DNA of 64,000 nt from an uncultured Planctomycetia bacterium (GTDB lineage Bacteria > Omnitrophota > Gorgyraeia > JABMRG01 > JAFGKX01), in NCBI GenBank assembly GCA_964570585.1, contig CAZMYR010000003.1, forward strand, positions 22,749 through 86,748. The letters run 5' to 3'. A program made the translations under genes and the position numbers. Below, one piece after another: positions 34,781 through 62,068 of this stretch. A model generated the notes under the pieces. The model was not told where the DNA came from and searched no databases. It worked only from the letters and a program-made list of their open reading frames with translations. Position 1 is the first letter of the stretch; each line of letters begins with the position of its first letter.

Positions 34781-34811
34781 TTTCTCCTCCTCTGTAGCGT
34801 GAGTTTTGCCC

Positions 34812-34832
34812 CTTTGCTTTCCCAAACGGTGC
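34812..34832 (-). promoter_or_regulatory. family C leader motif upstream of tuf copy 2
   Basis: identical to 18967-18987. Confidence 0.5.
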
Positions 34833-35158: not shown

Positions 35159-37276
35159 TTATCCAGTTAAGCCTAAGGCGAAGGTATCTTTAAACTTATG
35201 GACCAATTTTTCTCTCAGCATTCTATGGCGGCAATTTTTCAAAGGAGGATCTTCTTTAATAAGCCTGAAGGCTTCTTTTCGAGCTTGTTCGAGAATTTCT
35301 ATATCCTGAGTTAAATTGGCAAGTTCAAGCTCTGGAATACCATGCTGTCTCCTGCCAAATACTTCGCCTGTTCCGCGGATAGCCATATCCTCTTCTGCGA
35401 TTTGAAAACCGTTATCGGTCTTCACCATCGCTTCTAATCTAGAGGTAGAGCTTTCGGTTTTAGGTTCTGACATCAATATACAATATGACTGAAAATTCCC
35501 TCTACCTATTCTCCCCCTCATCTGATGAAGTTGACTTAGTCCAAAACGTTCTGCATTTTCTATCATCATTACTGAAGCATTTGGAACATCTATGCCTACC
35601 TCTATGACTGTTGTGCATACCAATATATCTATCTTGCCTTTTTTAAAATCTGTCATTGTTTTTGTTTTTTCATCAGCCTTAAGCCTTCCGTGCATCAGGC
35701 CCAATTTAAAGTTACTAAATTTCCGCTGCAGCTTCTGATATAATCTTTTCGCTCCTTCAATCTGCAACTTGTCCGATTTTTCAATAACAGGGCAGACAAT
35801 ATAACCTTGCCTGTCTTTTTTGACTTCTTCCTTAAAAAAATCATATGCCTTTTCTTTCTGAGCAGGAGAAATTAAAAAAGTCTCGACGCGGCGAGGGCCA
35901 AAGGGTAACTCGTCAATTACAGATATGTCCATATCGCCGTATAGACTCATTGCCAAAGTCCTGGGTATAGGTGTTGCGCTCATAACCAATATATGGGGGT
36001 TAAGACCTCTCTTTTTAAATGTAGCTCTCTGCTGTACTCCAAACTTATGTTGTTCATCAATAATTACCAGACCTAAATCTTTAAATTTGATAGCTTCCTG
36101 TATCAAGGTATGGGTACCGATGATAACTTGCGCTTCTCCGGATTGGATAAGTCCAACTGTATCAGCCTTTTTCTCTTTCGGCATTTCGCTTATTAGCAAT
36201 ACAACTTCAACGCCAAGGGGAGTAAGTATTTTGCTTAAAGTCAGGTAATGCTGCCGAGCTAAAATTTCGGTCGGAACCATTATAACACCTTGATGATTAT
36301 TTTTTGCAGTTAATGCTAACGCATATGTTGAAACGGCAGTCTTACCTGAACCTACTTCTCCCTGGAGAAGTCTGTACATTGGTCTTTGGGAAAGCATATC
36401 TTTCTCTATCTGGTCAATCGCTTTAGTTTGTGCCTTTGTAAGAGTAAAGGTTAGAGCTTTGAAGAATTCTTTCTTAAACTCATCTGTAACTGTATGGGTT
36501 AGTGCATTTTTAGCGCTCTTAATTCTATAGCGTCTTAATGCCAGGGCCATCTGCAGGAAAATAAATTCATCAAAGACTAACCTGCGACGGGCTTCATTTT
36601 TTCCTCTTTCATTAAACGGAAAATGTATATTCAGGAGTGCTGATTTCAGGTCTAATAAACGATGTCTTGCGCGTATATCGACAGGGAGATGTTCCTGAAT
36701 ATAAGACGAATACTGGTCTAGGCAATTTTTAATTATACTCCGCAATCTCCTCTGATTTACACCCGAAACTAAAGGATAGATAGGGACTATTCTTCCTGTA
36801 TGTATTTTGTTAAATTTTTCTGACCCATCGCCTCCGTCTCCGGCGGAGTCAGAGGCGGATCCGCCTTTGGCGGATTTTATTATTTCATATTCCGGATGGA
36901 TAACTTGTAATTTGCCGCGTTTTTGTATTTTGCCGTACATTATAACCTTATCGCCTTTATCAAAGTATTTCTTCATATATGGCTGACTAAACCAGAGGGC
37001 GTATATAGTAGCTGTCTTATCTCCTATTGCAAGCTGAAATATAGCCTGACCTTTCTTTGTCCTGAATATACCAGAGGCGAGCACTTCTCCAATAAATGTC
37101 TGAGCTTCATCCGGTATTAATTGGGCAATAGGCTTTATGTTGCTTCTGTCTTCATATCGCCGGGGAGTATGGTATAGGCAGTCAGCTACAGTTGATATAT
37201 CCAGACGCTGCAAGATATTTTGTCGCCGGGGTCCGACCCCTTTTATGTATCTGGATGGGACTTTTTCGATGTTCAT
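35159..37276 (-). CDS. recG: ATP-dependent DNA helicase RecG
   Basis: 705 aa, wedge domain plus SF2 helicase motifs (GSGKT, DEQH). Confidence 0.9.
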   Translation of the reverse strand: MNIEKVPSRYIKGVGPRRQNILQRLDISTVADCLYHTPRRYEDRSNIKPIAQLIPDEAQTFIGEVLASGIFRTKKGQAIFQLAIGDKTATIYALWFSQPYMKKYFDKGDKVIMYGKIQKRGKLQVIHPEYEIIKSAKGGSASDSAGDGGDGSEKFNKIHTGRIVPIYPLVSGVNQRRLRSIIKNCLDQYSSYIQEHLPVDIRARHRLLDLKSALLNIHFPFNERGKNEARRRLVFDEFIFLQMALALRRYRIKSAKNALTHTVTDEFKKEFFKALTFTLTKAQTKAIDQIEKDMLSQRPMYRLLQGEVGSGKTAVSTYALALTAKNNHQGVIMVPTEILARQHYLTLSKILTPLGVEVVLLISEMPKEKKADTVGLIQSGEAQVIIGTHTLIQEAIKFKDLGLVIIDEQHKFGVQQRATFKKRGLNPHILVMSATPIPRTLAMSLYGDMDISVIDELPFGPRRVETFLISPAQKEKAYDFFKEEVKKDRQGYIVCPVIEKSDKLQIEGAKRLYQKLQRKFSNFKLGLMHGRLKADEKTKTMTDFKKGKIDILVCTTVIEVGIDVPNASVMMIENAERFGLSQLHQMRGRIGRGNFQSYCILMSEPKTESSTSRLEAMVKTDNGFQIAEEDMAIRGTGEVFGRRQHGIPELELANLTQDIEILEQARKEAFRLIKEDPPLKNCRHRMLREKLVHKFKDTFALGLTG

Positions 37277-37286
37277 TTTTCTACTT

Positions 37287-37368
37287 GCCCCGTTAGAAAT
37301 TATGTGATATTATAGTGCATTCTACATGCTATATTTTGTTTAGTATATAAAAAAATTTCTAACGGGGC
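37287..37368. repeat. 15-bp perfect inverted repeat GCCCCGTTAGAAATT...AATTTCTAACGGGGC (family I) flanking a 52-nt AT-rich spacer in the divergent recG/rpmB promoter region
   Basis: read directly; near-identical arms (CCCCGTTACAAATT) occur inside both pilin-like genes. Confidence 0.75.
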
Positions 37369-37407
37369 TTGCATATTAAATTATGCTATGTTATTATATC
37401 ACAGAAT

Positions 37408-37482
37408 GCACCGTTTGGGAAAGCAAAGTAGCAAATGTAGGGATTACGGGGACACTTGCCCCTTTGCTTTCCCAAACGGTGC
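37408..37482 (+). promoter_or_regulatory. 21-bp perfect hairpin made of two inverted family C motifs, immediately 5' of the rpmB RBS
   Basis: read directly. Confidence 0.55.
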
Positions 37483-37507
37483 TATTCTTGTAAAACAGGA
37501 GTGGAAA

Positions 37508-37735
37508 ATGTCAAGGGTTTGTCAAATATGCGGCAAAAGGCCATCTGCCGGTAGGTCTATGACTCGCCGAGGAATGGCTAAAAGGCTCGGAGGGGTGGGG
37601 CAAAAAATAGTTCGTTCAAATAAACGTAGATTTTTACCCAATCTTAAAAAAGTGAAAGTAATTGTTGGAAAGACGAAAAAGACTATGCGTGTCTGCACAG
37701 AGTGTATAAAGTCTGGCAGAGTTAAAAAAGCATAA
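37508..37735 (+). CDS. rpmB: 50S ribosomal protein L28 (start trimmed to MSRVCQICGK)
   Basis: matches the L28 N-terminus; AGGAGTGG RBS. Confidence 0.85.
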   Translation: MSRVCQICGKRPSAGRSMTRRGMAKRLGGVGQKIVRSNKRRFLPNLKKVKVIVGKTKKTMRVCTECIKSGRVKKA

Positions 37736-37742
37736 GCACAAC

Positions 37743-37885
37743 AAAAAATCCTAAATCCTAAACTCGAAATCCTAAACAAACCCAAAACTCTAAACCCAAA
37801 TGTTCAAAACAGATTGCATAACAATTATGTTTTGAGTTTTGTATTTTGAGTTTGTTTAGAGTTTAGGGTTTAGTGTTTAGGGTTT
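37743..37885. terminator. long imperfect palindrome built from CCTAAA/TTTAGG repeats; bidirectional terminator between convergent rpmB and otsB, right arm overlaps the otsB 3' end
   Basis: read directly. Confidence 0.5.
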
Positions 37886-38667
37886 ATGTCCGTTAATTTC
37901 TCTAGAAATCCAAACACCTCTTTTGTATCCGTCGCATAATATTCAGCGTTTGAAACTGTATTTTTTCCTCCCACAAAGATTGTAATGCCTTTCTTTTTCA
38001 ATCTCTTAAAAGCGCTTTCATCGGTCTCGTCATCGCCTAGATAAATAGGTAAAATCCTCCTACGCTTATTCTTTTTTCTTTTTAATAAATAATCGACGAG
38101 GCTGCCCTTGTCCCATTTAATTGGAGGGCGCACTTCGATTACTTTCTTACCGTTGGTTATTTTTACTTTTTTACTTTCAATATACGGAGTAAGTGTAGTA
38201 ATAACTGAATGTTTTAGTTTTTTTATTTTTGCTCCTTTTACCATACGGTAATGCACGCTTAAGGTAAGCCCTTTGTCTTCAATAAAGGCGCCAGGAATTT
38301 TTCTGCATGCTGTTTTCAGTTTGGAAAAAAGTGGTGCCAGCCGCGAGTTTTTTTTAAAAAACTTGTGCCTGGCACCACTTTTTCCATTTTCTATCTCCAA
38401 CCCATGATTACCAGCTAAAGCTATGCCTTTTATTTTTATCTTTTGTTTTAATTGCTTAATTGAACGACCGCTTATTATCGCTATAGAGAATTTAGGATTT
38501 TTCATTAATTTAAGCAGGATAGATTTTGATTCTTTCGGTAAATTCGCTAATTCGGGCTTTTTAACAATTGGGGCAAGGGTGCCGTCATAATCCAGGAAAA
38601 GGTATATGTGGGGAGTTCTATTTATTTCTGCAAAGATTTTTCTGGAGTGTCGGAAGAGATACTTCAT
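37870..38667 (-). CDS. otsB: trehalose-6-phosphate phosphatase (HAD family)
   Basis: DYDGTL motif, 265 aa. Confidence 0.8.
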   Translation of the reverse strand: MKYLFRHSRKIFAEINRTPHIYLFLDYDGTLAPIVKKPELANLPKESKSILLKLMKNPKFSIAIISGRSIKQLKQKIKIKGIALAGNHGLEIENGKSGARHKFFKKNSRLAPLFSKLKTACRKIPGAFIEDKGLTLSVHYRMVKGAKIKKLKHSVITTLTPYIESKKVKITNGKKVIEVRPPIKWDKGSLVDYLLKRKKNKRRRILPIYLGDDETDESAFKRLKKKGITIFVGGKNTVSNAEYYATDTKEVFGFLEKLTDINPKH

Positions 38668-38722
38668 TCTCTGGTTTCAGGTTGCAAACTTATAACTTAT
38701 TACCAAAAAGGTATTTCACTCT

Positions 38723-40201
38723 CTATTTCTGAATCTTTTTGATCTCAGATATGACCTTGCCTGCCCACTTATAGATATTATTTTCCTTAACAACACCGCG
38801 TAAAGTCTTCATTCTTCTGGTTCGCTCTGCCTTGGGAAGCTCTAAAGCCTGCTTTATCTTATCTGCAAAGTCATCTATATCGTATGGGTTTACAAATATC
38901 GCTTCTGATAACTCTCTGGCGGCACCCGTGAACCTGCTGAGTATCAATACCCCGTCTTCATCAATACGCGATGAGATAAATTCTTTTGAAACTAAATTCA
39001 TGCCATCATGTAAAGGGCTTACAATGCAGGCTCGGGCAAGTCTAAAAAACGCAAGAATTTGCTTCAAAGGCACATGCCTTCTCAATAGAATAACCGGCGA
39101 CCAATCCTCAGCCGAATATTTCCAGTTTATATCAGACATAAGGGCATTAATCCTGTCGTTTAAATTCTTATATTCTTGTATCTGGATACGGCTGAGTTCT
39201 CCGATCTGGATAAAAACTATTCTTTTGCGATATTCTGGATATTTTTCCAAAAATCTATCCAGCGCCAATAATCTCTCCGGGATACCTTTAGTATAATCTA
39301 ACCTGTCCAGTCCAAAAAGCACATAATCTACCTTTTCTAAACTAAACTCATTTATAATCTTCTGCATGGCCTTTTCAACTTCTTCTGTATCTGATATTTC
39401 GCATACGGCCCGGAAATCGGCACTAATAGGGAATGCCCTTATAAACGTCTCATGGCCATTATATATTACTGAGTATTTTTCTCTATCAATCCTGGCCTCT
39501 AATACTTTATCCACATTATCGAAAAAATTCTCACAATGATATCTTATATGAAAACCTAATAAATCATTACATAATAGAGCTTCTATAATCTCTCTCTGTT
39601 TTGGGCATATTCTAAAGACTTCCGAATTGGGCCAGGGGATATGCCATGAATGTATACATAAAACATCAGGGCGCCTTTTCTTTATCATCTGCGCTAAAAG
39701 GGTAAGATGAAAATCATGAATCCACACCACTGCCCTCCGCCCTTTTATCTCTTCCAATATAACATCGGCAAATCTCCGGTTTACCAATTTATAATAATTC
39801 CAGTCGTTTTCATTAAAGCTGGGCCTGGTATAGGTAAGATGGCAAAGGGGCCATAATGAACTGTTGGAGAAGCCAAAATAATAACCTTTCTCTTCTTCTT
39901 TATCGAGCCATATCCTCTTTAAAGTATAACTCGGATTATCAGACGGAACTTTAATGCAGTCATTTTTATCCACCACTTTTCTATCTCCTGAACCCCGGCC
40001 ATGAGCAACCCATAAACCGCCGCAAGCCTGCATAACAGGGTCAAGCGCAGTCGCTACTCCTCCTGTCGGGCGGTCACACTCTATTTTGCCTTCTTTTATT
40101 ACGTGGACATACGGCTCTCTATTAGCAGCTATGACCAGCATAGTGTCTTTGCCTAACACTTTAGCAACAGTATCTTTAAGTTGTTTTCTATCCCAGGTCA
40201 T
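38723..40201 (-). CDS. otsA: alpha,alpha-trehalose-phosphate synthase (GT20)
   Basis: 492 aa, conserved GT20 motifs. Confidence 0.85.
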   Translation of the reverse strand: MTWDRKQLKDTVAKVLGKDTMLVIAANREPYVHVIKEGKIECDRPTGGVATALDPVMQACGGLWVAHGRGSGDRKVVDKNDCIKVPSDNPSYTLKRIWLDKEEEKGYYFGFSNSSLWPLCHLTYTRPSFNENDWNYYKLVNRRFADVILEEIKGRRAVVWIHDFHLTLLAQMIKKRRPDVLCIHSWHIPWPNSEVFRICPKQREIIEALLCNDLLGFHIRYHCENFFDNVDKVLEARIDREKYSVIYNGHETFIRAFPISADFRAVCEISDTEEVEKAMQKIINEFSLEKVDYVLFGLDRLDYTKGIPERLLALDRFLEKYPEYRKRIVFIQIGELSRIQIQEYKNLNDRINALMSDINWKYSAEDWSPVILLRRHVPLKQILAFFRLARACIVSPLHDGMNLVSKEFISSRIDEDGVLILSRFTGAARELSEAIFVNPYDIDDFADKIKQALELPKAERTRRMKTLRGVVKENNIYKWAGKVISEIKKIQK

Positions 40202-41292
40202 TTGCCTTCCTTTGCTAAATATAATGTCTGGGTCGGATAAGCAAATTCAATGTCTCGGGCCTCGAATTCTTTCTTCATGGCAAAATTAATCTCTTGCTGA
40301 ATATCCATATATTTATTGTAGTCTCTGCTCATAACATAGTAGACAACTTCAAATACCAGATTGAAATCGCCATAGGAGGCAAAATGGGCACGGTCAAAGG
40401 TGGTATCCTTAACATTTTTTATAACATTTTCGATTATTCCCGGTATAACCTTCAACTTCTCGAGGGGAGTCTGATAGGTAACGCCAAGTTTAAAAACAAC
40501 CCTTCTTTTTCCCATCCTTTTATAGTTGCGCAACCGAGAATTGGTAAGGTCTTTATTAGAAAAGACTAATTGCTCTCCGCCAAGACTGCGTATACGGGTG
40601 GTCTTAATTCCAATATGCTCAATGGTTCCTAAATACTCTCCTATTATGATAAAATCTCCGATTTCAAACGGACGGTCAAACATTATAGCAAAATAACTAA
40701 ATAGATCTCCTAAAATTGCCTGAGCTGCTAAGGCTACTGCTACGCCTCCGATACCTAAACCGGCAACAACAGCTGATATTTTAAATCCTAAGTTGTCTAA
40801 GAAAAAGATAATAGCCAATCCCCATACAATTAGCTTTATTATTCTTAAAATCCCTTTTAAACTTCGCTCTAAACCTACATCTTTGCCTCTCTTTGTCCGG
40901 TAAATATCAAATCCGTAACCTATAAGAACTGTGGCTAAACGCGCTGCAAATAAGGTCAGAATAGCCATTCCTGTAATATCGATAATTTTTTTCAACAGAG
41001 GATCTAAATTTAGGATATTCACACTCAAATAGAAAGCGCCAAAATAGGCCAAAGGAAGAAGTATCTTTTGAATAAGCCCAACCAGAAAATCATCCAACGT
41101 TGTAGCAGTCTTTTCTGCCCATTTTTTTAAGCGCCTTAATATAAAGCACTGGAATATCTTAATAATGGCGAAACCTGCTAAAAGTATAAGAACGCATATT
41201 AAATAATCGGCAATACGATTTCCAAGAAACGCCTTTTCTATAATCTCCTGAAGCATTTTTATTCTCCTTTTACCGTAGGAGCCCCCCGACAA
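40198..41292 (-). CDS. mscS: small-conductance mechanosensitive channel (MscS family)
   Basis: 364 aa, TM helices plus conserved MscS beta domain; 4-nt overlap with otsA. Confidence 0.8.
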   Translation of the reverse strand: MSGGSYGKRRIKMLQEIIEKAFLGNRIADYLICVLILLAGFAIIKIFQCFILRRLKKWAEKTATTLDDFLVGLIQKILLPLAYFGAFYLSVNILNLDPLLKKIIDITGMAILTLFAARLATVLIGYGFDIYRTKRGKDVGLERSLKGILRIIKLIVWGLAIIFFLDNLGFKISAVVAGLGIGGVAVALAAQAILGDLFSYFAIMFDRPFEIGDFIIIGEYLGTIEHIGIKTTRIRSLGGEQLVFSNKDLTNSRLRNYKRMGKRRVVFKLGVTYQTPLEKLKVIPGIIENVIKNVKDTTFDRAHFASYGDFNLVFEVVYYVMSRDYNKYMDIQQEINFAMKKEFEARDIEFAYPTQTLYLAKEGK

Positions 41293-43000
41293 CCTTTGGT
41301 GTCGGGACTCCTACGTTAAGCCGTATGTCCTTAAGCTGCAACTGAATAGATTTTACCCCCTTGTATGTATTTAAACTGCAGGTATAAGCCAGATTGATAT
41401 CTTCGTCTGTAATATTAGCGGGGACATTATCTGCCATTCTAAAACCTTTTGCTTCACAAACTTTATCTCCATCAGTAACCCACATCTTTATAGAATCTCT
41501 ACCTATTATCTGTGGTGGTCTTTTAATTTTAAGTTTTTTAGTTGCAAAGACAGGACGAGGGTTTGCTGAACCAAAGGGTGCAAGTTGACTCATCTCTTTA
41601 AAAAATCTATCTGATAATGACTTAAACCCAATCTCCATATCTATCTCTACTGTTGGTATAAGGTCTTCTGCTTTAAGACAACTTTGAGCAATTTCGTTTA
41701 TAAGCCTTCTAAAATCTTCCAAATGACTCTTATGCATTGTTAGGCCTGCTGCATAACGATGCCCGCCAAAATTCTCTAAAAGGTGGCTGCATTTATCAAG
41801 TGCTTCGACAAGATGAAAATTTTTTATCGACCTGCCTGAACCCTTTGCAATCTTACCTTTGGTTGTCATAATCAATGCCGGCCGATGATACCTATCAACA
41901 AGCCTTGATGCAACTATACCTATAACTCCCGAATGCCAGTCTTCATTCTGCAAAACGATAATTTTGTCCTGTTTAAAGTCTATAGTCTGTTCTAACTTAG
42001 CGAGCGCCTGAGTTAAAGTCTGCTGCTCTAATTTCTGCCTGTTGCGGTTTTCTATATCCAGAGTCTCTGCCAATAAATCTGCTTCCTGAGAATTACCTGT
42101 AAGGAGCAGTTGCAAAGCTGTCTCTGCTGAACTTAATCTTCCTGCTGCATTTATGCGCGGCCCGAGAATATAGCCGACATAATGGGAGCTCATTTCCTTG
42201 CCTTTTAATCTTGCTACTGATATAAGGGCCTGCAATCCTTTCTTTTTGCTATTGGTTACTTGCTCAAGGCCGAATTTTGTCAATATTCTATTTTCATCTG
42301 TAAGGGGCACCACATCCGAAATAGTGCCCAAGCATACTAAATCAAGATGTTCATAAATAGAATCTGAATCAACGCCGCAAAGAGCAGATGCCAATTTAAA
42401 AGCTACTCCGACTCCGGCTAAATCTTTATATGGGTACTTGCAGCCTTTTTGTAAGGGGTTTAATATGCTAAATGCATCTGGTAAATCGCCTGAAGGCTGA
42501 TGATGGTCGGTTATAATAACATCTATTCCGGCGCTGTTAAGCTGTTTTGTTTGCTCTTTCGCCGTTATGCCACAATCTACGCTTATAAATAATTTTGTCT
42601 TTCTTATTATAGCAAGTTTAATAGCATTCTCACTTATTCCGAAACCTTCCATAATCCTATCGGGTATATAATGGTTAACCCTTGCCCCCATTTTTTTTAG
42701 CACAAGCTCAAGCAGCGCTGTTGCGCAAATTCCATCTACGTCATAATCGCCATGAATTAATATCTGTTCTTTTCTTTCTATGGCTTTTTTTATACGGGAT
42801 ACAGATTTGCGCATCCCATTCATTAAAAAGGGGTCTTTTAAGTTAAACAGGCTGGGTCTTAAAAATTCATAAGCGCTGCCGGGAGTATCTATGCCTCTGT
42901 TTAACAAAATCTGAGCTGTGATTCCGGATACAGAAAGCTCATCGGATAGAATCTTCTGTCTTTCTAAATCTGTTTTCTTAATAAGCCATTTCTTTATCAT
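41270..43000 (-). CDS. recJ: single-stranded-DNA-specific exonuclease RecJ (start trimmed to MIKKWL; overlaps secDF stop by 4 nt)
   Basis: DHH and DHHA1 motifs. Confidence 0.85.
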   Translation of the reverse strand: MIKKWLIKKTDLERQKILSDELSVSGITAQILLNRGIDTPGSAYEFLRPSLFNLKDPFLMNGMRKSVSRIKKAIERKEQILIHGDYDVDGICATALLELVLKKMGARVNHYIPDRIMEGFGISENAIKLAIIRKTKLFISVDCGITAKEQTKQLNSAGIDVIITDHHQPSGDLPDAFSILNPLQKGCKYPYKDLAGVGVAFKLASALCGVDSDSIYEHLDLVCLGTISDVVPLTDENRILTKFGLEQVTNSKKKGLQALISVARLKGKEMSSHYVGYILGPRINAAGRLSSAETALQLLLTGNSQEADLLAETLDIENRNRQKLEQQTLTQALAKLEQTIDFKQDKIIVLQNEDWHSGVIGIVASRLVDRYHRPALIMTTKGKIAKGSGRSIKNFHLVEALDKCSHLLENFGGHRYAAGLTMHKSHLEDFRRLINEIAQSCLKAEDLIPTVEIDMEIGFKSLSDRFFKEMSQLAPFGSANPRPVFATKKLKIKRPPQIIGRDSIKMWVTDGDKVCEAKGFRMADNVPANITDEDINLAYTCSLNTYKGVKSIQLQLKDIRLNVGVPTPKVVGGLLR

Positions 43001-45207
43001 CTTCTCTTCTTCTTCTGCCAGGCGATTAAAAGCGGGCTGGCGATAAATATGGTTGAGTATATACCAGAGATAAAACCTACTATAAGACAAAATGCAAAAT
43101 TGTGTAATACCTCACCACCAAGAAAAAATAATGCAAATGCAGTAAATAGTGTAGTAAGGGTAGTAAGGACCGTCCTGCCTAAGGTCTGATTTACGCTCAT
43201 ATTTATTAATTCTATAAAGTTTATCTTGCGAAGCAAGCGCATATTTTCTCTTATCCTGTCATAGATAACCACTGTGTCATTTATAGAATAACCGGCAATG
43301 GTCAAAAGTGCCGCAACTATAGTTAAATCAAACTCCTTGCCTGTTATTGCCATTGCCCCTATCGTAACCAATACGTCATGAAATAAAGCTACTACTCCTG
43401 CCAATCCATATTCCCAGTGCTTAAATCTTATGCCAATGTAAATCAGAATGCCGGTCAGACCTAAAAGCAATGCCTTAATTGCATTCTTTCTTAAAAGCCT
43501 GCCTACTGATGGTCCAACCTTCTCCACCCTCATCATTTCAGCCTGGTTGTCTTTAAAATCTTGCTTGAAGGTCTTTTTTATCTTATCATATGTATCGGTG
43601 TATGTCCTTATGAGCACATCGCGATTATCTGCAAATTGCTGTATAGAGGCGCTGGCAAGGTCTACCCTTGCCAAACTATCACGAACCATAGCAATATCAA
43701 CCGGTTTTTGAAACCTGAATTGCTGCAGGGTGCCACCGGTAAAATCCACGCCAAAGTTTTTCTCGCCTCTCATCGTAAAAACAAAAATTCCTACAGCAAT
43801 AACCACAGCCGATAAAATATAACAAATCCTTCTTTTTGCGACAAAATTTATACGAGTGCCGCTTATTAAACTGAGCATGCGGAGCCTGCCAAATTTAGGA
43901 GAGCGACTAAGTACATTAAATATAGTTCTGGTAACAACAAGGGCAGTAAATAAACTGGCCAGAATACCTATGGTAAGTGTCATAGCAAATCCGCGAATAG
44001 GACCTGTCCCGAATTGAAGCAGCATAATAGCTGCTATGATTGTAGTTACATTTGAATCTAAAATTGCGCTGAAGGCCTTAGAATATCCGATTGAAATGGC
44101 GCTCCGGACAGTCTTTCCTGTCTTAAGCTCTTCTCGAATTCTCTCATATATTAAAACATTGGCATCTACTGCCATGCCAATAGTAAGTATCAAACCTGCA
44201 ATGCCCGGCAAAGTTAAAGTAAAGTGAAAATAGCCCATTACCCCGCCTATGATTATGATATTTAATAAAAGGGCGATGTTTGCTATTATCCCTGAAAGCA
44301 TATAATATATGAGCATGAAGACTATGACTAAAATAAAACCTGTCAAAATAGCGCACAGGCCTGCATTTACCGAGTCCCGTCCTAATAACGGACCTACTGT
44401 CCTTTCTTCCTCTATATATACTGGCGCAGGAAGAGCACCGGCGCGCAATACAATTGCTAAATCGTTTGCCTCATCCGGACTAAACCTCCCTTCAATTATC
44501 GCTTCTCCGGAAGGTATCTCTTCCTTTATATTAGGGGCAGATTTTACAACGCCATCAAGCACTATAGCGAGTCGGCGTCCAACATTGTCTCTGGTAACGC
44601 GGGCAAATTTTCTCGCGCCTTCTCTATTGAAAGATAGACCTACTACAGGTTGATTAAATTGGGACTGTTGAAACTTAACTGTAGCGTCTTTTAAATCAGC
44701 TCCGGCAACTTCGGCTTTTTCTTCAAGAAGGATTGGCTGGCCTTTTTCGTCTTCTTTCAATTCATAGCCTTCGGGAACATTGTTTTCCAGGGCGCTCTTT
44801 AATTTCTCAGGGTCTGCTGAAACCAGTTTAAACTCTAAAAGTGCAGTTTGGCCTACCAGCTCAATAGCCCTATCTCTATCCGTTACTCCTGGTAGCTGTA
44901 CTACTATTTCATCCTTGCCCTGTCTTTGTATAGCAACCTCTTTAACCCCAAATTGGTCTATACGATTCCTTATTATCTCTAATGCTACATCCGGCGCATC
45001 CTTTGCCTCTTTCTCAGATAACTTTGCTGTATCAACCTTAAGCACAAGGTACATTCCACCCTGGAGGTCAAGCCCTAAATTTATCCTTCCTTCCCGAATT
45101 ACTTTACCTGCTTTATCTTTTATGGTAAACGGGGGAAATAAACTCCACAGGGATAAAATAATAACAACTAATATAAGCAAAACCTTCCATTTAAGGTTCT
45201 TCTGCAT
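42997..45207 (-). CDS. secDF: fused protein translocase subunits SecD-SecF
   Basis: 736 aa, 12 TM, periplasmic domain. Confidence 0.9.
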   Translation of the reverse strand: MQKNLKWKVLLILVVIILSLWSLFPPFTIKDKAGKVIREGRINLGLDLQGGMYLVLKVDTAKLSEKEAKDAPDVALEIIRNRIDQFGVKEVAIQRQGKDEIVVQLPGVTDRDRAIELVGQTALLEFKLVSADPEKLKSALENNVPEGYELKEDEKGQPILLEEKAEVAGADLKDATVKFQQSQFNQPVVGLSFNREGARKFARVTRDNVGRRLAIVLDGVVKSAPNIKEEIPSGEAIIEGRFSPDEANDLAIVLRAGALPAPVYIEEERTVGPLLGRDSVNAGLCAILTGFILVIVFMLIYYMLSGIIANIALLLNIIIIGGVMGYFHFTLTLPGIAGLILTIGMAVDANVLIYERIREELKTGKTVRSAISIGYSKAFSAILDSNVTTIIAAIMLLQFGTGPIRGFAMTLTIGILASLFTALVVTRTIFNVLSRSPKFGRLRMLSLISGTRINFVAKRRICYILSAVVIAVGIFVFTMRGEKNFGVDFTGGTLQQFRFQKPVDIAMVRDSLARVDLASASIQQFADNRDVLIRTYTDTYDKIKKTFKQDFKDNQAEMMRVEKVGPSVGRLLRKNAIKALLLGLTGILIYIGIRFKHWEYGLAGVVALFHDVLVTIGAMAITGKEFDLTIVAALLTIAGYSINDTVVIYDRIRENMRLLRKINFIELINMSVNQTLGRTVLTTLTTLFTAFALFFLGGEVLHNFAFCLIVGFISGIYSTIFIASPLLIAWQKKKRR

Positions 45208-45229
45208 CTATTTACTCTCCCAGAGGTAA

Positions 45230-45274
45230 TTGGGACGTCCTGCAGGGGGGGCACCCTGCAGGACGTCCCCAACC
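45230..45274. repeat. palindromic element family B, copy 1 (GGGACGTCCTGCAGGG-N6-CCCTGCAGGACGTCCC)
   Basis: read directly; inverted copy at 51973-52018. Confidence 0.85.
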
Positions 45275-45290
45275 AGAAAGAAAAATCTGG

Positions 45291-45626
45291 TTACTGGCTA
45301 CTGGTTTCTGGTTTCTTCTTCAATCCTGCTACCGCAGATTTCGATATTTCCAGCTTTACATTTTCGTTTACTCTAACTGTGAAAGTATTCTCTTTTACAT
45401 TCACAATAGTGCCGTGTATTCCTCCTGTGGTAATTATTTCTTCATTCTTTTTAAGTTCGCCGAGCATCTTTTGATGGTCTTTCTGCTTCTTTTGCTGCGG
45501 CCTTATAAGCAAAAAATAAAATATGGCAAAGATTAGTATAATAGGCATAAAACTAACCAGAGGACTTGGCGCCTGTTGTCCCTGCGTCTGCGATGGCTGA
45601 CCCATTGCATAGGCATTTGTTAGCAT
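45291..45626 (-). CDS. yajC: preprotein translocase subunit YajC
   Basis: 111 aa, single TM, conserved. Confidence 0.85.
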   Translation of the reverse strand: MLTNAYAMGQPSQTQGQQAPSPLVSFMPIILIFAIFYFLLIRPQQKKQKDHQKMLGELKKNEEIITTGGIHGTIVNVKENTFTVRVNENVKLEISKSAVAGLKKKPETSSQ

Positions 45627-45649
45627 AAAAAACTCCTTCCGTTATTGGG

Positions 45650-47900
<2,251 letters not shown>

Positions 47901-47904
<4 letters not shown>

Positions 47905-49064
47905 TCCGTCAACTTAACAACTTCTGCGCCCGGGTAATAGTGCCTGAGTATCTGATAACAATTATAGCCTTTTTTTGCCATGGAAAAGGCTCCCCACTGG
48001 CACATTCCCACACCATGACCCCAACCATATCCTTTAAAATGGGCTTGATTATCTTCAATTGACATACTGAAATTTGTGCTATTTAAGACTTTTGTGCCTA
48101 ATATATTGCGAAACTCTTTTGCGGCCATTTTTATGGTATTGTCTGCTTTAATCCTTAAGCTCCTTACTCTGCCCGATCTATCTCTGGATAGAATCTTTAT
48201 AGATTTTATTTTACCTGTCGGTTCTTTAGCCCTGCTTATTTTATCTTCAATCTCATCTAAAGAAATTGTCTTCGCCCATATAAAATACGGAGAATTTTCG
48301 CAAAAAGGGCAGTTTACGCCTCTGAGCGGTTTTACCCCTGATGAAATCTTCCATAACCTCGATGCTTTTTCAGTTCTGCCTCCGCATGTAGCGTGGAAAA
48401 AGGCCGGCAAAACCCTACCTCTATACATTAGAATCTGGCCTGCAGTTTCATCAACTGCTTTGCTGGTTCTAAATTTCTCTCCAAATACGCCTCTGTATAC
48501 CTGTGAACTTACATCTGCACGAAGATAGTATTCTTTATCAGACCTTTGCTGGGCTTGATAAATAGCAAATGTCCTTGAAGCTATGGCCTGGGCCTTTATA
48601 GCCTCCAGGGGCCATCGGTGAGATATTTCATAGTAAAGAACACCTTTAATATAATTTTCTATATTTAATACATTTATAACTGAAAGCAAGCCTTGTTTTG
48701 TCTTTATTAATTGTAACCTGCCTCTATACAAACACTTCCCTACATATATAGATGGGTCTTTGGCAGGTATAATCTCTATCCCATATATCTTAAAATAATC
48801 CTCTTTGAATGTCCTAAAATGTATTCCATGCTCAAAAGCCCTGACTTTCGCCTGCCACAGAACCTCACCTTCTTTAAGGACTTCCCCGGTCTCGATTGTA
48901 GTTATTTTATACGGCCCTTTTACTGCTAATTCTATCTCTTCTACGTCTTCATCTATTGCTACCCTTATCTTATCAGGCACTGCTACTGATAAACTGTCTA
49001 CCTCTTCTGACAAGCAGAATAATATGGCAAAAATAAAAAGAACGAATATGAAGGATTTTCTCAT
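47901..49064 (-). CDS. SpoIID/LytB-domain protein (amidase enhancer), secreted
   Basis: signal peptide plus SpoIID motif ISHRWPLEAIKAQAIASRTFAIYQ. Confidence 0.7.
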
Positions 49065-49268
49065 TTTCGGGTTAGTAGATATAATACAATTGTTATTGCT
49101 GCACTAATTAAAAGGCAGGTAGCTAAGGGGAGGTAAAAATGGAAATTATCCTTTTTTATATAGATATCGCCAGGCAGTTTACCCAAAAATGGAATCTTAT
49201 CGAAAAACTGCAAAAATATTCCCAGCATTACTAACAATATCCCGAATATAATAAGGGTTTTGCCAATC

Positions 49269-49814
49269 TTAATTTTGAATTTTTAATTTTTTATACCGTT
49301 CCCGCTCACTATATATACATCCGCAATACTTCTGATGATAGAGCCCCATCTGTCTTGATAAATTATGCGACTCTCTAAAACCTGTTCTGAAGTCTTCATA
49401 ATAAAAATTTATTCCATAATTTTTTTCTAAAGAGGTGGCTATATCCTTTATCTTGTCTTGATCCTGATATGGGCTTATCAACAAAGTTGTAGTAAATGCG
49501 TCAAAATTTTCTCTTTTGGCAAACTCTGCGGTTATTTTTAGCCTTAATTGCCAGCATAAGCTGCATCTATCATCCTGTTCATGGAGTGTTATCTTTCTAA
49601 AAAAATCCTCAAATTTATATTCTCTATGGAAAAAAACGGGCAAATTTAACTTCTCCGATACACAAACTACCGATTCCCTCCTTTTATCATACTCTGAAAC
49701 AGGATGTATATTGGGATTATAAAAAAAGCCGAAAACTTTATGGTCTTTTTCACGAAGGGTGTTTATGCAATAAATCGCGCAAGGCCCGCAACATATATGC
49801 AGTAGGATTCGCAT
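49269..49814 (-). CDS. queH: epoxyqueuosine reductase QueH (DUF208)
   Basis: 181 aa, CCGPC plus Cys cluster. Confidence 0.75.
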   Translation of the reverse strand: MRILLHICCGPCAIYCINTLREKDHKVFGFFYNPNIHPVSEYDKRRESVVCVSEKLNLPVFFHREYKFEDFFRKITLHEQDDRCSLCWQLRLKITAEFAKRENFDAFTTTLLISPYQDQDKIKDIATSLEKNYGINFYYEDFRTGFRESHNLSRQMGLYHQKYCGCIYSERERYKKLKIQN

Positions 49815-49868
49815 CGTTTAGCGTTTAGCGGATAGCGTTTAGCCGATGGGAAAACTATTCGCTATACG
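49815..49868. repeat. (CGTTTAGCG)-type tandem array with complementary CGCTAAA array; queH-ruvB spacer
   Basis: read directly. Confidence 0.7.
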
Positions 49869-50906
49869 CTAAAATAGCTCTTTCTGCTTCTCTCTGGTTT
49901 TCTTAAGATGTTGATATGCCAGGTCAGTAATTTTTCTGCCGCGTGGAGTGCGTTTTAAAAAGCCGCTTTTAAGCAAAAATGGCTCCACCACATCAACTAT
50001 TGTATCGGATTCTTCATTTAAAGAAGCGGCCAATGACTCTATGCCTACAGGCCCGCCTTTATAATAATCGATTATGGCAAAAAGAACCTTTCTATCTATA
50101 GTATCCAGGCCAAACGAATCGATGCCCTGGGAATTCAAGGCCTCATCCGCTATTTCTTTAGTAATGGCACCGGATTTTTTTACCTGGGAGAAGTCTCTTA
50201 CCCGGCGAAGCAGGCGATTGGCAACACGGGGAGTGCCTCTTGAGCGCCTGGCTATTTCCATCGCTCCTTCTTTGTCAATCTTAATATTTAAAATTTTCAC
50301 AGAACGATTTATAATCTTCACCAGCTCTTCCGGCTGGTAAAAATCTAAATGAAAAAACATGCCAAACCTGCCCCGTAAAGGGGCGGAAAGTAATCCGGAA
50401 CGGGTAGTAGCTCCTATAAGGGTGAAATGCTTTAGATTAAATTTTATTGTTTTTGCATACGGGCCTTTATCTATAACAAAATCTATCTGGAAATTTTCCA
50501 TAGCCGGATAAAGAAATTCCTCTACAACTTTAGATAAACGGTGCACCTCATCTATAAACAAGACATCCCCTTTTTCTAAATTAGTAAGTATGCCTATTAA
50601 ATCCCCTGCTCTTTCTATTGCCGGGCCTGATGTAGCGGTTATTTTAGAACCCATCTCGTGGGCAATGATATGAGCTAAACTAGTCTTACCTAATCCGGGA
50701 GGCCCTGCAAAAAGCATGTGCTCAAGAGGTTCTCGTCTTTCCTTTGCAGCCTGCAAGGATATAAGCAGATTTTCTACAGTCTTTTTCTGCCCTACAAAGT
50801 CGCTTATTTTAGTAGGACGCAAAGAAAGATTTAATATCTTATCCTCATCAGTCTCCTGCTGAAGGATTATCTTCTCTCTTTTCGGCTTTGGGGTTTTTTC
50901 CTTCAT
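49869..50906 (-). CDS. ruvB: Holliday junction branch migration ATPase RuvB
   Basis: Walker A GPPGLGKT, 345 aa. Confidence 0.95.
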
Positions 50907-51013
50907 ACTAGCAACTATTCCTTACAAAAGTTTATTGTCGAGACCTGAAACTTATTAGACCCTACAACAGTCTGACCCCTTGCTGCTTATATTTTTCCAC
51001 TGACACATTCACA

Positions 51014-51757
51014 TCAGGACTTATGGCGTAGTATTTCAAGTTCTTTTCTTAACGGTGCCCAGTATTCTATATCCTTTTGTCGCTCTCGTGCTTCCTCTTC
51101 ACGAAGTGCTGAGCCAAGTTTTTCTGTATCTCTATTAATTGCCAGGGATAAAAGGGGCCTGCGTGCAAGACATTCCCTTGCAATTGCAGGATATCGCCTT
51201 GTCAATTCAATTAAAATAGATGTATCCCGACATTCGCGAAGCCACCATTTTATGCGCTCATCTGAGGGTTTATCTTTGTTTGATAAATAATCATTCTCTA
51301 CAAGGCGTTTTAACATAAGCCAATCTTTATCGCGCTGAGTTTTTTTGCTTTGAACAAGGTCTCGCAGACCGATGACGTCGATAGAGCTGCCGTTTTTTAA
51401 TACCACGGTTTTTTTACGTTTCCATAATTTATCAAATGGTTCCGAGCCGCGCAATTTAGATATTATGTCAATACGCAATTTTTCTACGCCTTTTGCATTA
51501 CACCGAAAATGACAGGCATGTCCACGTTCTAAATACTCTTGCTTAAGCGGCGGCACATAGATACGAGTTGCATTCAAGGCGCTTAAAGCAGCTTGCAGAG
51601 ATTTAAGGTTTTTCGGTGTGCATAATAAGACAAAATCTGAATCACGGCTAAATTCAGCAGCACCGTAAATAATACAGGCCTGTCCGCCGATTAGCAAACA
51701 TTTAACTTTATGCTTCTTTAAAGTAGAAAGGACTTTGAGGATCGGGTTCGGGGTCAA
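51014..51757 (-). CDS. predicted nucleotidyltransferase (Pol-beta superfamily core GG...S.D.D, plus about 150-aa helical C-terminal domain); alternative start codon
   Basis: LLIGGQACIIYGAAEFSRDSDFVL motif; no in-frame ATG near the N-terminus. Confidence 0.5.
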   Translation of the reverse strand: MTPNPILKVLSTLKKHKVKCLLIGGQACIIYGAAEFSRDSDFVLLCTPKNLKSLQAALSALNATRIYVPPLKQEYLERGHACHFRCNAKGVEKLRIDIISKLRGSEPFDKLWKRKKTVVLKNGSSIDVIGLRDLVQSKKTQRDKDWLMLKRLVENDYLSNKDKPSDERIKWWLRECRDTSILIELTRRYPAIARECLARRPLLSLAINRDTEKLGSALREEEARERQKDIEYWAPLRKELEILRHKS

Positions 51758-51893
51758 GACTCCCTCCTAATGCAATATAAAGTTTCCATAACTTAGTTGT
51801 TTCGGAAAAACGTTCAGCGGGCGTAAGCCTTAGCCATTCAGCGTTTTCATCTACAAATTTCTGTTTTGTGTATTTAATCTTTTGTTTCTTCAT
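51708..51893 (-). CDS. small hypothetical protein (61 aa) overlapping the NTase gene by 50 nt
   Basis: ATG-initiated ORF; no recognisable domain. Confidence 0.35.
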   Translation of the reverse strand: MKKQKIKYTKQKFVDENAEWLRLTPAERFSETTKLWKLYIALGGSLDPEPDPQSPFYFKEA

Positions 51894-51966
51894 TGAGGGT
51901 AAAAGGGGACGGTTCTATTTTTTACATTTTTCCTGGTGTCCCCCTCAGGGGAAAAAATTCCTTCTT

Positions 51967-52086
51967 CTAGCATGGTTGGGGACGTCCTGCAGGGAGGCAA
52001 CCCTGCAGGACGTCCCCACTACTTACATCAGTCTCCTGCTGAAGGATTATCTTCTCTCTTTTCGGCTTTGGGGTTTTGTTTTTCAT
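51967..52086 (-). pseudogene. duplicated 5' fragment of ruvB (first 17 codons, 52 bp identical to 50846-50897) fused in frame to codons from palindrome B; 39-aa ORF
   Basis: read directly; [20 protein letters not shown] versus Ruv[21 protein letters not shown]. Confidence 0.6.
51973..52018. repeat. palindromic element family B, copy 2 (inverted relative to copy 1)
   Basis: read directly. Confidence 0.85.
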
Positions 52087-52098
52087 ATTTTTTAATGG

Positions 52099-52659
52099 TT
52101 ACTCTAAATAAAGCAAATATGCCTCCCACTTTCCATTATAACTGTCAATAACGTAGGTATCTGTATTAGCAGGAGTAACAGTATCTTCTATGACATAGTG
52201 TCCTTGATTTTTTGGGTCAGTATCATTACTTCGAAATAATATTTGGTACTGGCTTGTTGTTCCATCGTAGAGAACCCTATACTGGCATATTGTTGTATCG
52301 CTTGAAGTTGGTGGTATCTCTATGTTTAATTCATCTTCAGCATTAACATAATCACTGATAGCTTCTGTCCAATCCCAGGGAAAATAACCTCCCTTTTTAT
52401 AATTATAATACCTCTCTGCTGCAAGAATAACCTGTACGGTATTGGGTACCTCCTTCAATTTCGCCCTGGTACGAAATGTTTCAAACTGAGGATACAATAT
52501 TGTAGCAAGAATAGCGATAACAACTGTGACCATTAATAATTCTACTAAGGTAAACCCCGTTACAAATTTACGTTTGCTATTCTTCTTTTGTATGCTTTGG
52601 TTAATTTGTAACGGGGTAAATGAGTTCCTTTTCTTTGGCTTTATATTTTTTTCTTTCAT
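52099..52659 (-). CDS. type IV pilin / pseudopilin-like protein (prepilin-type N-terminal cleavage/methylation domain), 35-aa leader
   Basis: KRKFVTG-FTLVELLMV class III signal; hydrophobic N-terminal helix. Confidence 0.75.
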   Translation of the reverse strand: MKEKNIKPKKRNSFTPLQINQSIQKKNSKRKFVTGFTLVELLMVTVVIAILATILYPQFETFRTRAKLKEVPNTVQVILAAERYYNYKKGGYFPWDWTEAISDYVNAEDELNIEIPPTSSDTTICQYRVLYDGTTSQYQILFRSNDTDPKNQGHYVIEDTVTPANTDTYVIDSYNGKWEAYLLYLE

Positions 52660-52671
52660 ATTCTTTAATGG

Positions 52672-53217
52672 TTATTCTAAATAACCTAGATATTTATCAT
52701 AGGGACTTTCGATAGTATAGTTACGTGTTTGTATAACGCACTCACCTACTTTTTTTTCGTCTTCTGCAGTATTGTCAGCTTTCCGAAAATGTATTGCCCA
52801 GGTACCGGGAGTAGTAGTATTATCCACCCAATATTCGCATACATCTCTAGGAAGAGTTATATTTAATTCATGCTCAACTTCCGCATTGCCATGAGCGCTA
52901 CTAGTATAAACAAAATTATCAGCATCGGCCGCAGTCCAGTCAAAATAAGCACCAATTTTAAAATTATAATACTTCTCTCCTGCAAGAATTAGCTGTATGG
53001 TATTCGGTACTTCCTTCAATTCTGTCCTTATACGAAATGTTTGAAATCGGGGATACATTATTGTAGCAAGAACACCGATAATAACTACGACTATTAATAA
53101 TTCTATTAAGGTAAGCCCCGTTACAAATTTACGTTTGCTATACTTGAAAATATAATTTTTAAATATATTTTGTATGCTTTGGTTAATTTGTAACGGGGTA
53201 AAGGAGTTCCTTTTCAT
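52672..53217 (-). CDS. type IV pilin / pseudopilin-like protein, paralog of the gene at 52099-52659
   Basis: KRKFVTG-LTLIELLIV signal; shared leader KRNSFTPLQINQSIQ. Confidence 0.75.
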   Translation of the reverse strand: MKRNSFTPLQINQSIQNIFKNYIFKYSKRKFVTGLTLIELLIVVVIIGVLATIMYPRFQTFRIRTELKEVPNTIQLILAGEKYYNFKIGAYFDWTAADADNFVYTSSAHGNAEVEHELNITLPRDVCEYWVDNTTTPGTWAIHFRKADNTAEDEKKVGECVIQTRNYTIESPYDKYLGYLE

Positions 53218-53849
53218 CTTATTCCCCTTTTTGTCTTTTTCTGGTTATAAACCTCGTTCAATAGTTGTTCTGTGGTCTCTATATCAGGATTTTGTTCAAG
53301 AGCACTCTTTACCATCCGGTCTGCCTCGGTCTTTTTATATTGAAGCTGGCTTAAAACTTCTAATGCCTCTTCTTCTATATCTTTCCTTAAAGCTATCTCA
53401 TCGGGTTTAAATCTATCTTTTATAAGACCGAACCTGCCAACTTTACCCTGAAGCTTTGCAATTATCTGCTTTGCCCTTTGCTCTCCTATGCCGGGTAGGC
53501 ATCTGAGGTGTGAGGTGTCTGCCGATTCTATAGCTTGAATAATCATTGATATCGGTTCACTCAATGCCTTAACAGCAGCCTTAGGCCCTACGCCAGAAAC
53601 GGTTATAAATTTTTCGAAGAATTCCTTTTCTATCTGATTTGTAAATCCGATCAACACCGGAGTGCTCCTTGCCGGGTCATTTGCAAGATAATGGAAAGTT
53701 ATCAGTTCTATCTCATTGCCAATCCTGGCATCTTTTAAATCGTTCAATACCGTAAGCGGAACCAGAATCTCATATCCTATGCTATTTATTTCGATAAGTA
53801 AACTGGCTTCATTCTTCCTGATTAGCTTGCCTTTGATTCTGGATATCAT
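53214..53849 (-). CDS. ruvA: Holliday junction DNA helicase RuvA
   Basis: 211 aa, OB domain plus HhH motifs; 4-nt overlap with the downstream pilin-like gene. Confidence 0.9.
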   Translation of the reverse strand: MISRIKGKLIRKNEASLLIEINSIGYEILVPLTVLNDLKDARIGNEIELITFHYLANDPARSTPVLIGFTNQIEKEFFEKFITVSGVGPKAAVKALSEPISMIIQAIESADTSHLRCLPGIGEQRAKQIIAKLQGKVGRFGLIKDRFKPDEIALRKDIEEEALEVLSQLQYKKTEADRMVKSALEQNPDIETTEQLLNEVYNQKKTKRGIR

Positions 53850-53859
53850 AAGTATAGGA

Positions 53860-62067: not shown

Positions 62068-62068
62068 C

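Follow-up and report, generated by a model that had tools for sequence, protein, structure and literature searches.

Here, we analyse a stretch of 64,000 nucleotides from an uncultured bacterium of the Omnitrophota (assembly GCA_964570585.1, contig CAZMYR010000003.1, positions 22,749 to 86,748 of the forward strand), in the following called the window; positions are counted from its first letter. It carries a short inverted repeat that a preliminary description had located next to recG and inside the leader-coding parts of two prepilin-like genes. We conclude that this repeat very probably represents the two ends of a miniature, non-coding transposable element, similar to a miniature inverted-repeat transposable element (MITE), which has been inserted in frame into genes and is translated along with them. 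The evidence comes from the anatomy of the copies, from filled and empty sites in related genomes, and from the duplications that flank the copies across many phyla.

Four copies in the window

The terminal inverted repeats are 14 bp long, CCCCGTTA(G/C)AA(A/G)TT, and the 14-nt arms are perfect in four out of four window copies. These copies have a length of 50-83 bp and are non-coding, with spacers too short for an enzyme gene. They are located as follows:

37288..37367: copy 1, 80 bp, G-type arms CCCCGTTAGAAATT / AATTTCTAACGGGG (37288-37301 and 37354-37367), spacer 52; in the 5' untranslated region (5'UTR) of recG, between recG and rpmB
37284..37287 (left) and 37368..37371 (right): target-site duplications (TSDs) of copy 1, CTTG
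52555..52616: copy 2, 62 bp, C-type arms CCCCGTTACAAATT (52555-52568 and 52603-52616), spacer 34; in the leader of pilin 1, in frame as ..TPLQINQSIQKKNSKRKFVTG
53116..53198: copy 3, 83 bp, C-type arms (53116-53129 and 53185-53198), spacer 55; in the leader of pilin 2, in frame
61887..61936: copy 4, 50 bp, arms CCCCGTTAGAAGTT, spacer 22; in a TPR/Peptidase_MA gene

The three inverted repeats that had been reported, with spacers of 52, 34 and 55 nt, are thus exact in position and far beyond chance, and copy 4 had been missed. Their length had been given as 14-15 bp. The 14 bp hold for all copies, whereas the 15th base at copy 1 (G...C) is merely the inner base of the flanking CTTG duplication. 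When up to two mismatches are allowed, the 14-mer CCCCGTTASAAATT has nine matches in the window (1.15 expected; none of 100 shuffles reaches nine), and the pattern of paired arms has four matches (0.00 expected).

All copies are bordered by short direct repeats. Copy 2 lies between two TAAA (52551-52554 and 52617-52620; TTTA when read on the gene strand), and copy 4 between two TTTA on the plus strand (61883-61886 and 61937-61940). The flanks of copy 3, TAAG (53112-53115) and TAAA (53199-53202), represent a duplication with one mismatch, TTTA/CTTA on the gene strand.

Three of the four copies are located inside genes, each in frame and without a stop codon. Element and duplication together comprise 66 nt (22 codons) in pilin 1, 87 nt (29 codons) in pilin 2 and 54 nt in the TPR gene; because this is a multiple of three and no stop occurs, the gene-borne copies are simply translated. 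The arms in the pilin genes are indeed read as FTPLQIN and KFVTG, as stated earlier. Copy 4 is found in frame directly after the signal peptide of the TPR/Peptidase_MA protein (...SEL-NPVRSSYFEGSEETSNGV-NQQG...), and its arms use a reading frame different from that of the pilin copies, giving NPVRS...TSNGV. No relationship exists among the spacers of the recG, pilin and TPR sites, except that those of the two pilin paralogs have their ends in common; even these differ by a 21-nt indel. RNA hairpins formed by the arms are very stable (z = -4.0 to -6.3; none of 200 shuffles was as good), and therefore a secondary effect on translation or mRNA stability is plausible.

Filled and empty sites in relatives

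According to its GroEL, the window belongs to Candidatus Omnitrophota. This Omnitrophota genome has received at least four insertions (four copies in 64 kb), and empty sites are known for the TPR, recG and pilin copies. The TPR ortholog in P0063/L123 is 91% identical, lacks exactly 18 codons and has a single TAAA. Its empty site reads GAATTAAA directly followed by CCAGCAG, in contrast to GAATTAAA, the 50-bp element and TAAACCAGCAG in the window, i.e., TAAA-element-TAAA. As a separate observation, the same ortholog carries a different 50-bp element (L123, 1250-1299; CCCCCACACCAAC...GTTGGTATGGGGG, duplication TTTA) in frame in its signal-peptide region, where the window has none; it hints at a larger set of CCCC...GGGG elements flanked by 4-bp duplications.

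For recG and the pilins, two syntenic relatives were compared, L249 (SecDF 87% identical) and L250 (SecDF 83% identical). In both, the recG 5'UTR contains no element and a single CAAG/CTTG, with ...AATGCAAG up to the insertion point and ...ATG behind it; the order of the region is ...TATAAT...AATTTAAAATGCAAG, insertion point, ..TAAAAATGGAC. The window has CAAG, the 80-bp element and again CAAG at this position. An exact-match search for the empty recG/rpmB junction in the JGI metagenomes gave no matches, and the empty site was obtained via synteny in L249 and L250. Copy 1 had first been assigned to the recG promoter region. A TATAAT box preceded by TG, which is likely the native recG -10 element, is conserved as TGTGCTATAAT in L250 and as TGTGTTATAAT in L249. 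Because this box is located upstream of the insertion, copy 1 resides between the -10 box (37398-37393, minus strand) and the start codon, that is, in the 5'UTR and not in the promoter.

The pilin site was found in several states. The syntenic pilin of L249 has a 5-residue leader, MKTKA/FTLVELL, and no element (slashes mark the leader boundary here and below). In L250, the pilin reads MKKTT-FTPLEIKKYSRKKKFLTG/FTLIELL; its element is of the G type, has 50 bp and an unrelated spacer, and occupies the codons at which the window paralogs carry C-type elements of 62 bp and 83 bp. The distant homolog L125 reads ATG AAA CTA CCA AAA AAC CCC GGG TTTA-element-TTTA CA TTA GTG GAA, which is a canonical MKLPKNPG/FTLVELL leader split by the element, with ...VTG/FTLVELL as the downstream junction. 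Both L250 and L125 represent single-copy pilins with an element. Given an empty L249, different elements in L250 and the window, and a split leader in L125, the same pilin codons must have been hit more than once. In P0002/L124, a second, unrelated palindromic element is nested in the spacer of the pilin element.

Target-site duplications and distribution

The genome scan covered one genome per species and used 24 specified bases (both arms, spacer 13-73), for which we calculate less than one chance match in 596 Gb. Arms were found in at least 120 loci. According to the record titles, the majority belong to Patescibacteria, and further loci belong to Omnitrophota, classes of Planctomycetota, Elusimicrobia, Nitrospinota, KSB1, some proteobacterial bins and others. 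Overall, the element is 41-131 bp long, with a variable and unconserved internal spacer. Copies on genome contigs measure 41-101 bp, where the upper bound is the ceiling set by the search pattern, and pilin-associated copies from metagenomes mostly 50-131 bp.

Direct repeats of 4-5 bp lie flush with the arms at 88 out of 126 copies, compared to 1 out of 126 for control 4-mers taken just outside. Among these 88 copies, the repeat has 4 bp in 78 and 5 bp in ten cases, and 31 different sequences occur. The target logo is R|YNNR|Y, with the duplicated bases between the bars and T...A in 78%, mostly T-N-N-A. Flush duplications and such a target logo are hallmarks of a terminal-inverted-repeat transposon with a 4-bp staggered target cut. 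The element would move by cut-and-paste or replicative transposition, with a transposase that would be supplied in trans and make the 4-bp staggered cuts.

Depending on the site, the arms are read as TPL(E/Q)I and KF(L/V)TG, as PVR and SNGV, or are non-coding. They also occur in glycosyltransferase and FtsI genes, in 5'UTRs and at tRNA-Pro. Since only 3 of the 126 copies in this unbiased genome sample are located at a pilin junction, the element is not pilin-specific, and pilins are one tolerated niche. One GT2 glycosyltransferase open reading frame (ORF; L122, minus strand, within 400-2300) contains an N-terminal copy and a second one in frame in the middle of the protein (...DPVRNTTFQ...EVSNGVDEG...).

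The idea of a mobile element captured into coding sequence, one of several offered in the preliminary description, is thus borne out by terminal inverted repeats with TSDs, by empty sites, by copies that are non-coding or translated in two frames, and by the occurrence in many phyla.

Insertion at the predicted prepilin cleavage site

Type IV prepilins are characterised by Gly at position -1, a hydrophobic residue at +1 and Glu at +5, followed by a hydrophobic helix. The junctions KFVTG/FTLVE and KFVTG/LTLIE of the two window pilins fit this motif, and the N_methyl domain is above the Pfam cut-off in both genes (pilin 1: residues 34-56, E=9e-6; pilin 2: E=6.2e-6). The leader of 35 aa that had been proposed for both applies to pilin 1; that of pilin 2 has 34 aa.

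The codons for Gly/Phe-Thr, GGN TTT ACN, contain G-TTTA-C (GG-TTTA-CC) and thereby match the target logo near-perfectly. Insertion took place at the TTTA that belongs to the Phe(+1)/Thr(+2) codons. With an element that ends in ...ACG GGG and a second TTTA behind it, the sequence at the downstream junction encodes Thr-Gly/Phe-Thr once more, in front of the hydrophobic helix. The left copy of the site (G-F-T-P-L-...) would become part of a lengthened leader. Prepilin peptidase would cut at the rebuilt site before the hydrophobic helix, and the element-encoded peptide would be discarded with the leader. Probably, the element is tolerated in pilin leaders because its own end rebuilds the leader cleavage site.

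Metagenomes were scanned with the right arm plus GGGG-NTTAC-NNT-NNT-NGAR, and the right junction with a pilin N-terminus was found in at least 120 metagenomic loci. A left arm within 260 nt is present in 113 of the matches, and 86 of these show an exact TTTA duplication. Approximately two thirds (66 out of 96) of the non-identical two-arm copies have kept the Gly codon directly before the left F-T, and 75 out of 96 are in frame. The in-frame copies are largely free of stop codons (60 out of 75), in contrast to 14 out of 192 in the other two frames. Most of the out-of-frame pilin copies have an ATG inside the element, nearer to the right arm, which leads to a short canonical leader, e.g., MQNKKNKLLTG/FTIIEL.

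tRNA-Pro and start codons

A comparable situation was found at tRNA-Pro. In L058, L098, L072 and L120, the element is located at the 5' end of this gene, and the tRNA predicted by ARAGORN begins inside the terminal CGGGG, the final 5 nt of the element. Together with the duplicated CGTG, this CGGGG restores the tRNA 5' end. Two or three tandem copies, older and partly decayed, are present at the same tRNA-Pro site, so the rebuilt site was evidently hit again. The 5' end of tRNA-Pro appears as a repeated insertion hot spot in several phyla (L058 4340-4471, L098 4249-4475, L072 730-830, L120 4234-4285).

Start codons are the third type of neighbourhood. The motif ATGAA adjoins 24 of the 126 copies, whereas an A stands before only 27% of the TGAA sites of these loci. 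In 46 out of 126 copies, an ATG opens a frame that continues across the right arm (...K-ISNGV-K...) and on into a long ORF. In many copies of approximately 80 bp, one arm has next to it another inverted copy that is only partial (TAACGGGG). This form has a polar order that is kept across phyla. The left arm is followed by 5-12 nt and then by the partial inverted copy (T)AACGGGG. Next come AT-rich DNA with a box similar to TATAAT, an ATG and 3-6 codons rich in Lys/Asn, before the form closes with the right arm. Such an order may represent either a selected 5' cassette or a remnant of the left end of the parent element.

These three types of sites allow a more far-reaching interpretation, which we put forward tentatively and consider rather doubtful as a whole. 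The elements might form an undescribed family that spreads horizontally among Patescibacteria, Omnitrophota, Planctomycetota and further uncultivated phyla and is specialised in "safe havens" that cells remove, namely prepilin leaders, the 5' leader of tRNA-Pro and start-codon regions, where the tip CGGGG plus the 4-bp duplication would rebuild the processing site. The polar form of approximately 80 bp might have been exapted as a portable 5' cassette (small hairpin, TATAAT-like box, ATG, Lys-rich stretch, right arm), setting the transcription or translation start, an upstream ORF and a strong mRNA hairpin for hundreds of genes, including pilins.

Search for a parent element and opposing evidence

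A parent element was searched for as arm pairs 300-6000 bp apart, with at most four mismatches per arm and a matching duplication required. All candidates turned out to be ordinary genes, namely FtsI, GT2 glycosyltransferases and neighbouring pilins, whose 5' ends carry separate small copies. A set of 23 solo arms gave no lead to a parent element. An all-against-all BLAST of 810 ORFs near the copies yielded unannotated clusters of at most five loci and no recurrent transposase-like family.

Several observations have to be weighed against the interpretation as a transposable element. No autonomous copy and no transposase bounded by the arms was found in the approximately 1.7 Mb of fetched loci. 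The search pattern had no match in IMG/VR, and blastn with one representative element of 91 nt gave matches in cultured phage and plasmid records at chance level only. No flush duplication is present at 33 out of 126 copies, which would fit decay or adjacent or nested insertions. The spacers are wholly different between sites and genomes, while members of a classical MITE family usually have a common internal sequence. Identical 14-nt arms in very distant phyla are unusual for a MITE as well and could be explained by a further function or by horizontal transfer at a very high rate. Metagenome-assembled genomes may in part carry wrong taxon labels: the copy in the "Aenigmatarchaeota" locus L043 is, together with its flanks, nearly identical to that in Parcubacteria L014. 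Finally, the cut by prepilin peptidase at the second G/F site is predicted from the motif only.

Alternative explanations

The alternative that survives best, albeit as an improbable one, is a dedicated cis-regulatory RNA structure of pilin genes, e.g., a translational attenuator or thermometer, to which the other sites would be secondary. It would account for the high stability of the hairpins given above, for their position directly downstream of the pilin start codons, for their high frequency in metagenomic pilin genes, and for pilin arms that stay intact although the proteins diverge. However, the small share of pilin junctions in the unbiased sample does not agree with it, nor does the presence of the same arms in TPR, glycosyltransferase and FtsI genes, in 5'UTRs and at tRNA-Pro. 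Moreover, the flanks are target-site duplications, and the syntenic pilin of L249 manages with its 5-residue leader and no hairpin. Rfam contains no family above noise: at gathering thresholds the sites have no match, and the only sub-threshold matches are to generic hairpins (miRNA precursors). A shared regulatory hairpin or a pilin recombination site, as had been considered earlier, is therefore not supported as the primary nature of a structure that is not pilin-specific, has unrelated spacers and is missing from L249.

Somewhat less likely still is a palindromic element of the REP/REPIN type (REP, repetitive extragenic palindromic sequence), mobilised as single-stranded DNA by a REP-associated tyrosine transposase (RAYT, IS200-like HUH). 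The short palindromic unit with many copies per genome would agree with this, as would the lack of a transposase between the arms, the partial inverted copy near one arm in many copies of approximately 80 bp, and several other palindromic repeat families in the same genome. No target duplication arises in REP and IS200/IS605-type transposition; the element is not REP-like for this reason, given that 88 out of 126 copies are flanked by 4-5 bp duplications of variable sequence. Furthermore, copies are frequent inside genes, whereas REPs are extragenic, and no RAYT gene was seen, with no search directed at one.

Very little speaks for a recombination site for pilin variation, by inversion or by cassette exchange between the paralogs. 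In its favour, the adjacent paralogs have arms of identical sequence and orientation at a distance of 644 bp, and are approximately 88% identical in their 5' halves while the 3' halves diverge. Such conserved 5' and variable 3' halves are, however, the usual pattern of pilin paralogs. Every copy forms a full inverted-repeat unit and has a duplication of its own, the neighbouring genes are ruvA, ruvB and two small ORFs with no recombinase gene nearby, and the same unit occurs in single-copy pilins (L250, L125) and in unrelated genes. It had also been stated that nucleotide conservation between the paralogs is confined to the hairpin. The similarity in fact runs over approximately the first 300 nt, including the N-terminal helix, and it is the spacer itself that contains the 21-nt indel.

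A leader peptide (FTPLQI...KFVTG) selected at the protein level, suggested by the translation of both arms and by peptide motifs that recur in many prepilins, is practically refuted by the identical arms in non-coding DNA (copy 1) and in another frame (NPVRS/TSNGV, copy 4), by a perfect arm complementarity that protein selection does not require, and by orthologs that have no such segment. The refuting scenario raised in advance, in which the protein is conserved and synonymous changes break the pairing, is wrong as well, since conservation is at the DNA level. Translational bypassing of the gene-60 or byp type came to mind in view of TTTACC on both sides of the hairpin, and was rejected because the gene-borne copies are kept in frame and stop-free, which bypassing does not need. 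A sequencing or assembly artefact was rejected as well, because the element is present, with intact reading frames, in assemblies of many independent projects.

Comparison with known systems

No description of the element was found in the literature, whether by arm sequence, by MITE together with Candidate Phyla Radiation (CPR)/Patescibacteria, or by pilin leader together with inverted repeat. The family is new, whereas its kind is known, as in-frame palindromic elements and promoter-bearing MITEs are already established. What is unusual are the identical ends over many uncultivated phyla, the unrelated spacers, and the survival at sites where the element's own tip rebuilds a processing site.

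Like prokaryotic MITEs, e.g., the Correia elements of Neisseria, the element is small, non-coding and multicopy, with terminal inverted repeats, a TSD and presence/absence between relatives. It differs from them in a duplication of 4-5 bp YNNR instead of TA, in arms of only 14 bp, in the unconserved internal sequence and in the occurrence of the same arms in many uncultivated phyla, and no parent insertion sequence is known. Both MITEs and the present element are often located just upstream of genes, to which they may supply expression signals; MITE-borne promoters have been reviewed (PMC10969869). The Rickettsia palindromic elements are selfish palindromes located in frame in coding genes and translated as an extra peptide, while the host protein is kept (PMC10969869). 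The in-frame, stop-free insertion into ORFs is common to both. Rickettsia palindromic elements have a length of 100-150 bp, and their sequence and hosts are unrelated to the present element and its Omnitrophota host. The element thus acts like them without being a member of that family. Here, clear TSDs are found, and the insertions concentrate in leader regions (prepilin leader, post-signal-peptide position, start codons, tRNA 5' end).

The 4-bp T..A duplication and the ends starting with CCC resemble piggyBac and IS1380, which we regard as a lead and not as a test. According to ISfinder, IS1380 elements have repeats of 4-5 bp and CC ends. For piggyBac, the target is TTAA and the ends are CCCTT/CCCTC (PMC10813416). 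In our case, by contrast, the two central target bases are free, and neither a piggyBac/IS1380 nor any other transposase was found next to the arms in the fetched loci.

REP/REPIN sequences with their RAYT are similar in being short hairpin repeats with many scattered copies and no internal gene; they are extragenic and have no target duplications, whereas the present copies are located inside genes with duplications. With respect to tRNA-Pro, a parallel exists to tRNA-targeting integrative elements: in both cases, terminal bases of the element stand in for the part of the gene that was displaced, which leaves the tRNA intact. The integrative elements are large, driven by an integrase, and usually rebuild the 3' end via a site-specific att core. 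Here, an element of 50-100 bp rebuilds 5 nt of the 5' end by means of its repeat tip and the 4-bp duplication.

Host genes in the window

The genes and signals next to the four copies are the following:

35159..37276, minus strand: recG, with copy 1 in its 5'UTR; the right arm ends 11 nt before the ATG, the TSD 7 nt before it
37393..37398, minus strand: TATAAT box with TG in front of it, conserved in relatives and located upstream of the insertion
37508..37735, plus strand: rpmB (L28, 75 aa), divergent from recG, with an in-frame MSRVCQICGKRP... start
52099..52659, minus strand: prepilin-like gene 1, 186 aa; leader 35 aa, predicted cleavage KFVTG/FTLVELL
52672..53217, minus strand: prepilin-like gene 2, 181 aa; leader 34 aa, predicted cleavage KFVTG/LTLIELL
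60580..62097, minus strand: TPR / Peptidase_MA_2 gene, host of copy 4

A Ribosomal_L28 protein of 75 aa is present in L249 and L250, too. The pilin genes are part of a ruvC-ruvA-ruvB cluster, in which the start of pilin 2 overlaps the stop of ruvA; the order ruvC-ruvA-pilin-ruvB is kept in L249 and L250. Where related Omnitrophota have one pilin, the window has two paralogs (region 52099-53849) plus two small ORFs (51014-51893).

Further repeats and features of the window

A second, unrelated palindromic family (GCACCGTTTGGGAAAGCAAAG...CTTTGCTTTCCCAAACGGTGC and variants) was observed in the window at 37408-37482, 8071-8159 and 53856-54000, as well as in L124 at 88-163. Its copy adjacent to rpmB is absent from L249 and L250, the L124 copy is the one nested in the spacer of the pilin-leader element, and copies at 53856-54000 are translated in the N-terminal extension of the ruvC ORF (GTFPKSKGQVSP repeats). 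Two units of 69 bp at 15895-15963 and 57675-57743, with arms TCCCGCACC.../...GGTGCGGGA and each flanked by TTCA, look like a third family of small inverted-repeat elements with a 4-bp duplication. A perfect 29-nt inverted repeat (TGGTGCCATGCACTGCGGTGCCACCCTAC) occurs twice, at 10667-10748 and 13153-13234, with 24-nt loops in opposite orientation. Between rpmB and the next gene (37746-37885), there is a long imperfect inverted repeat of short AAATCCTAAA/TTTAGGGTTT-like units.

Apart from repeats, a c-di-GMP-I-GGC riboswitch aptamer was detected at 58442-58521 on the minus strand (72.1 bits, above the Rfam gathering threshold). Two ORFs of 414 aa (17736-18980 and 33581-34825), both with a TTG start and each with the same antisense ORF of 147 aa, are probably duplicated EF-Tu genes that flank the rpoBC/ribosomal protein region.

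Biological implications

For the window itself, no new regulatory mechanism of pilins is needed. The element encodes the prepilin leaders that had been called "unusually long" and, in the proteomes of Patescibacteria and Omnitrophota, many odd N-termini (...ISNGV..., ...KFLTG...), and start codons as well as signal and leader predictions in those proteomes need care. With this family, the survival of selfish DNA in coding sequence is clearly seen outside Rickettsia as well, and the reason we propose is that its end rebuilds the prepilin cleavage site or the 5' end of a tRNA. Identical 14-nt ends in distant uncultivated phyla point to a horizontal-transfer network or to a very conserved transposase with 4-bp staggered cuts. 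From a biological point of view, the tentative role as a portable 5' cassette would, if true, touch the pilins, which are central to the lifestyle of these small-celled bacteria.

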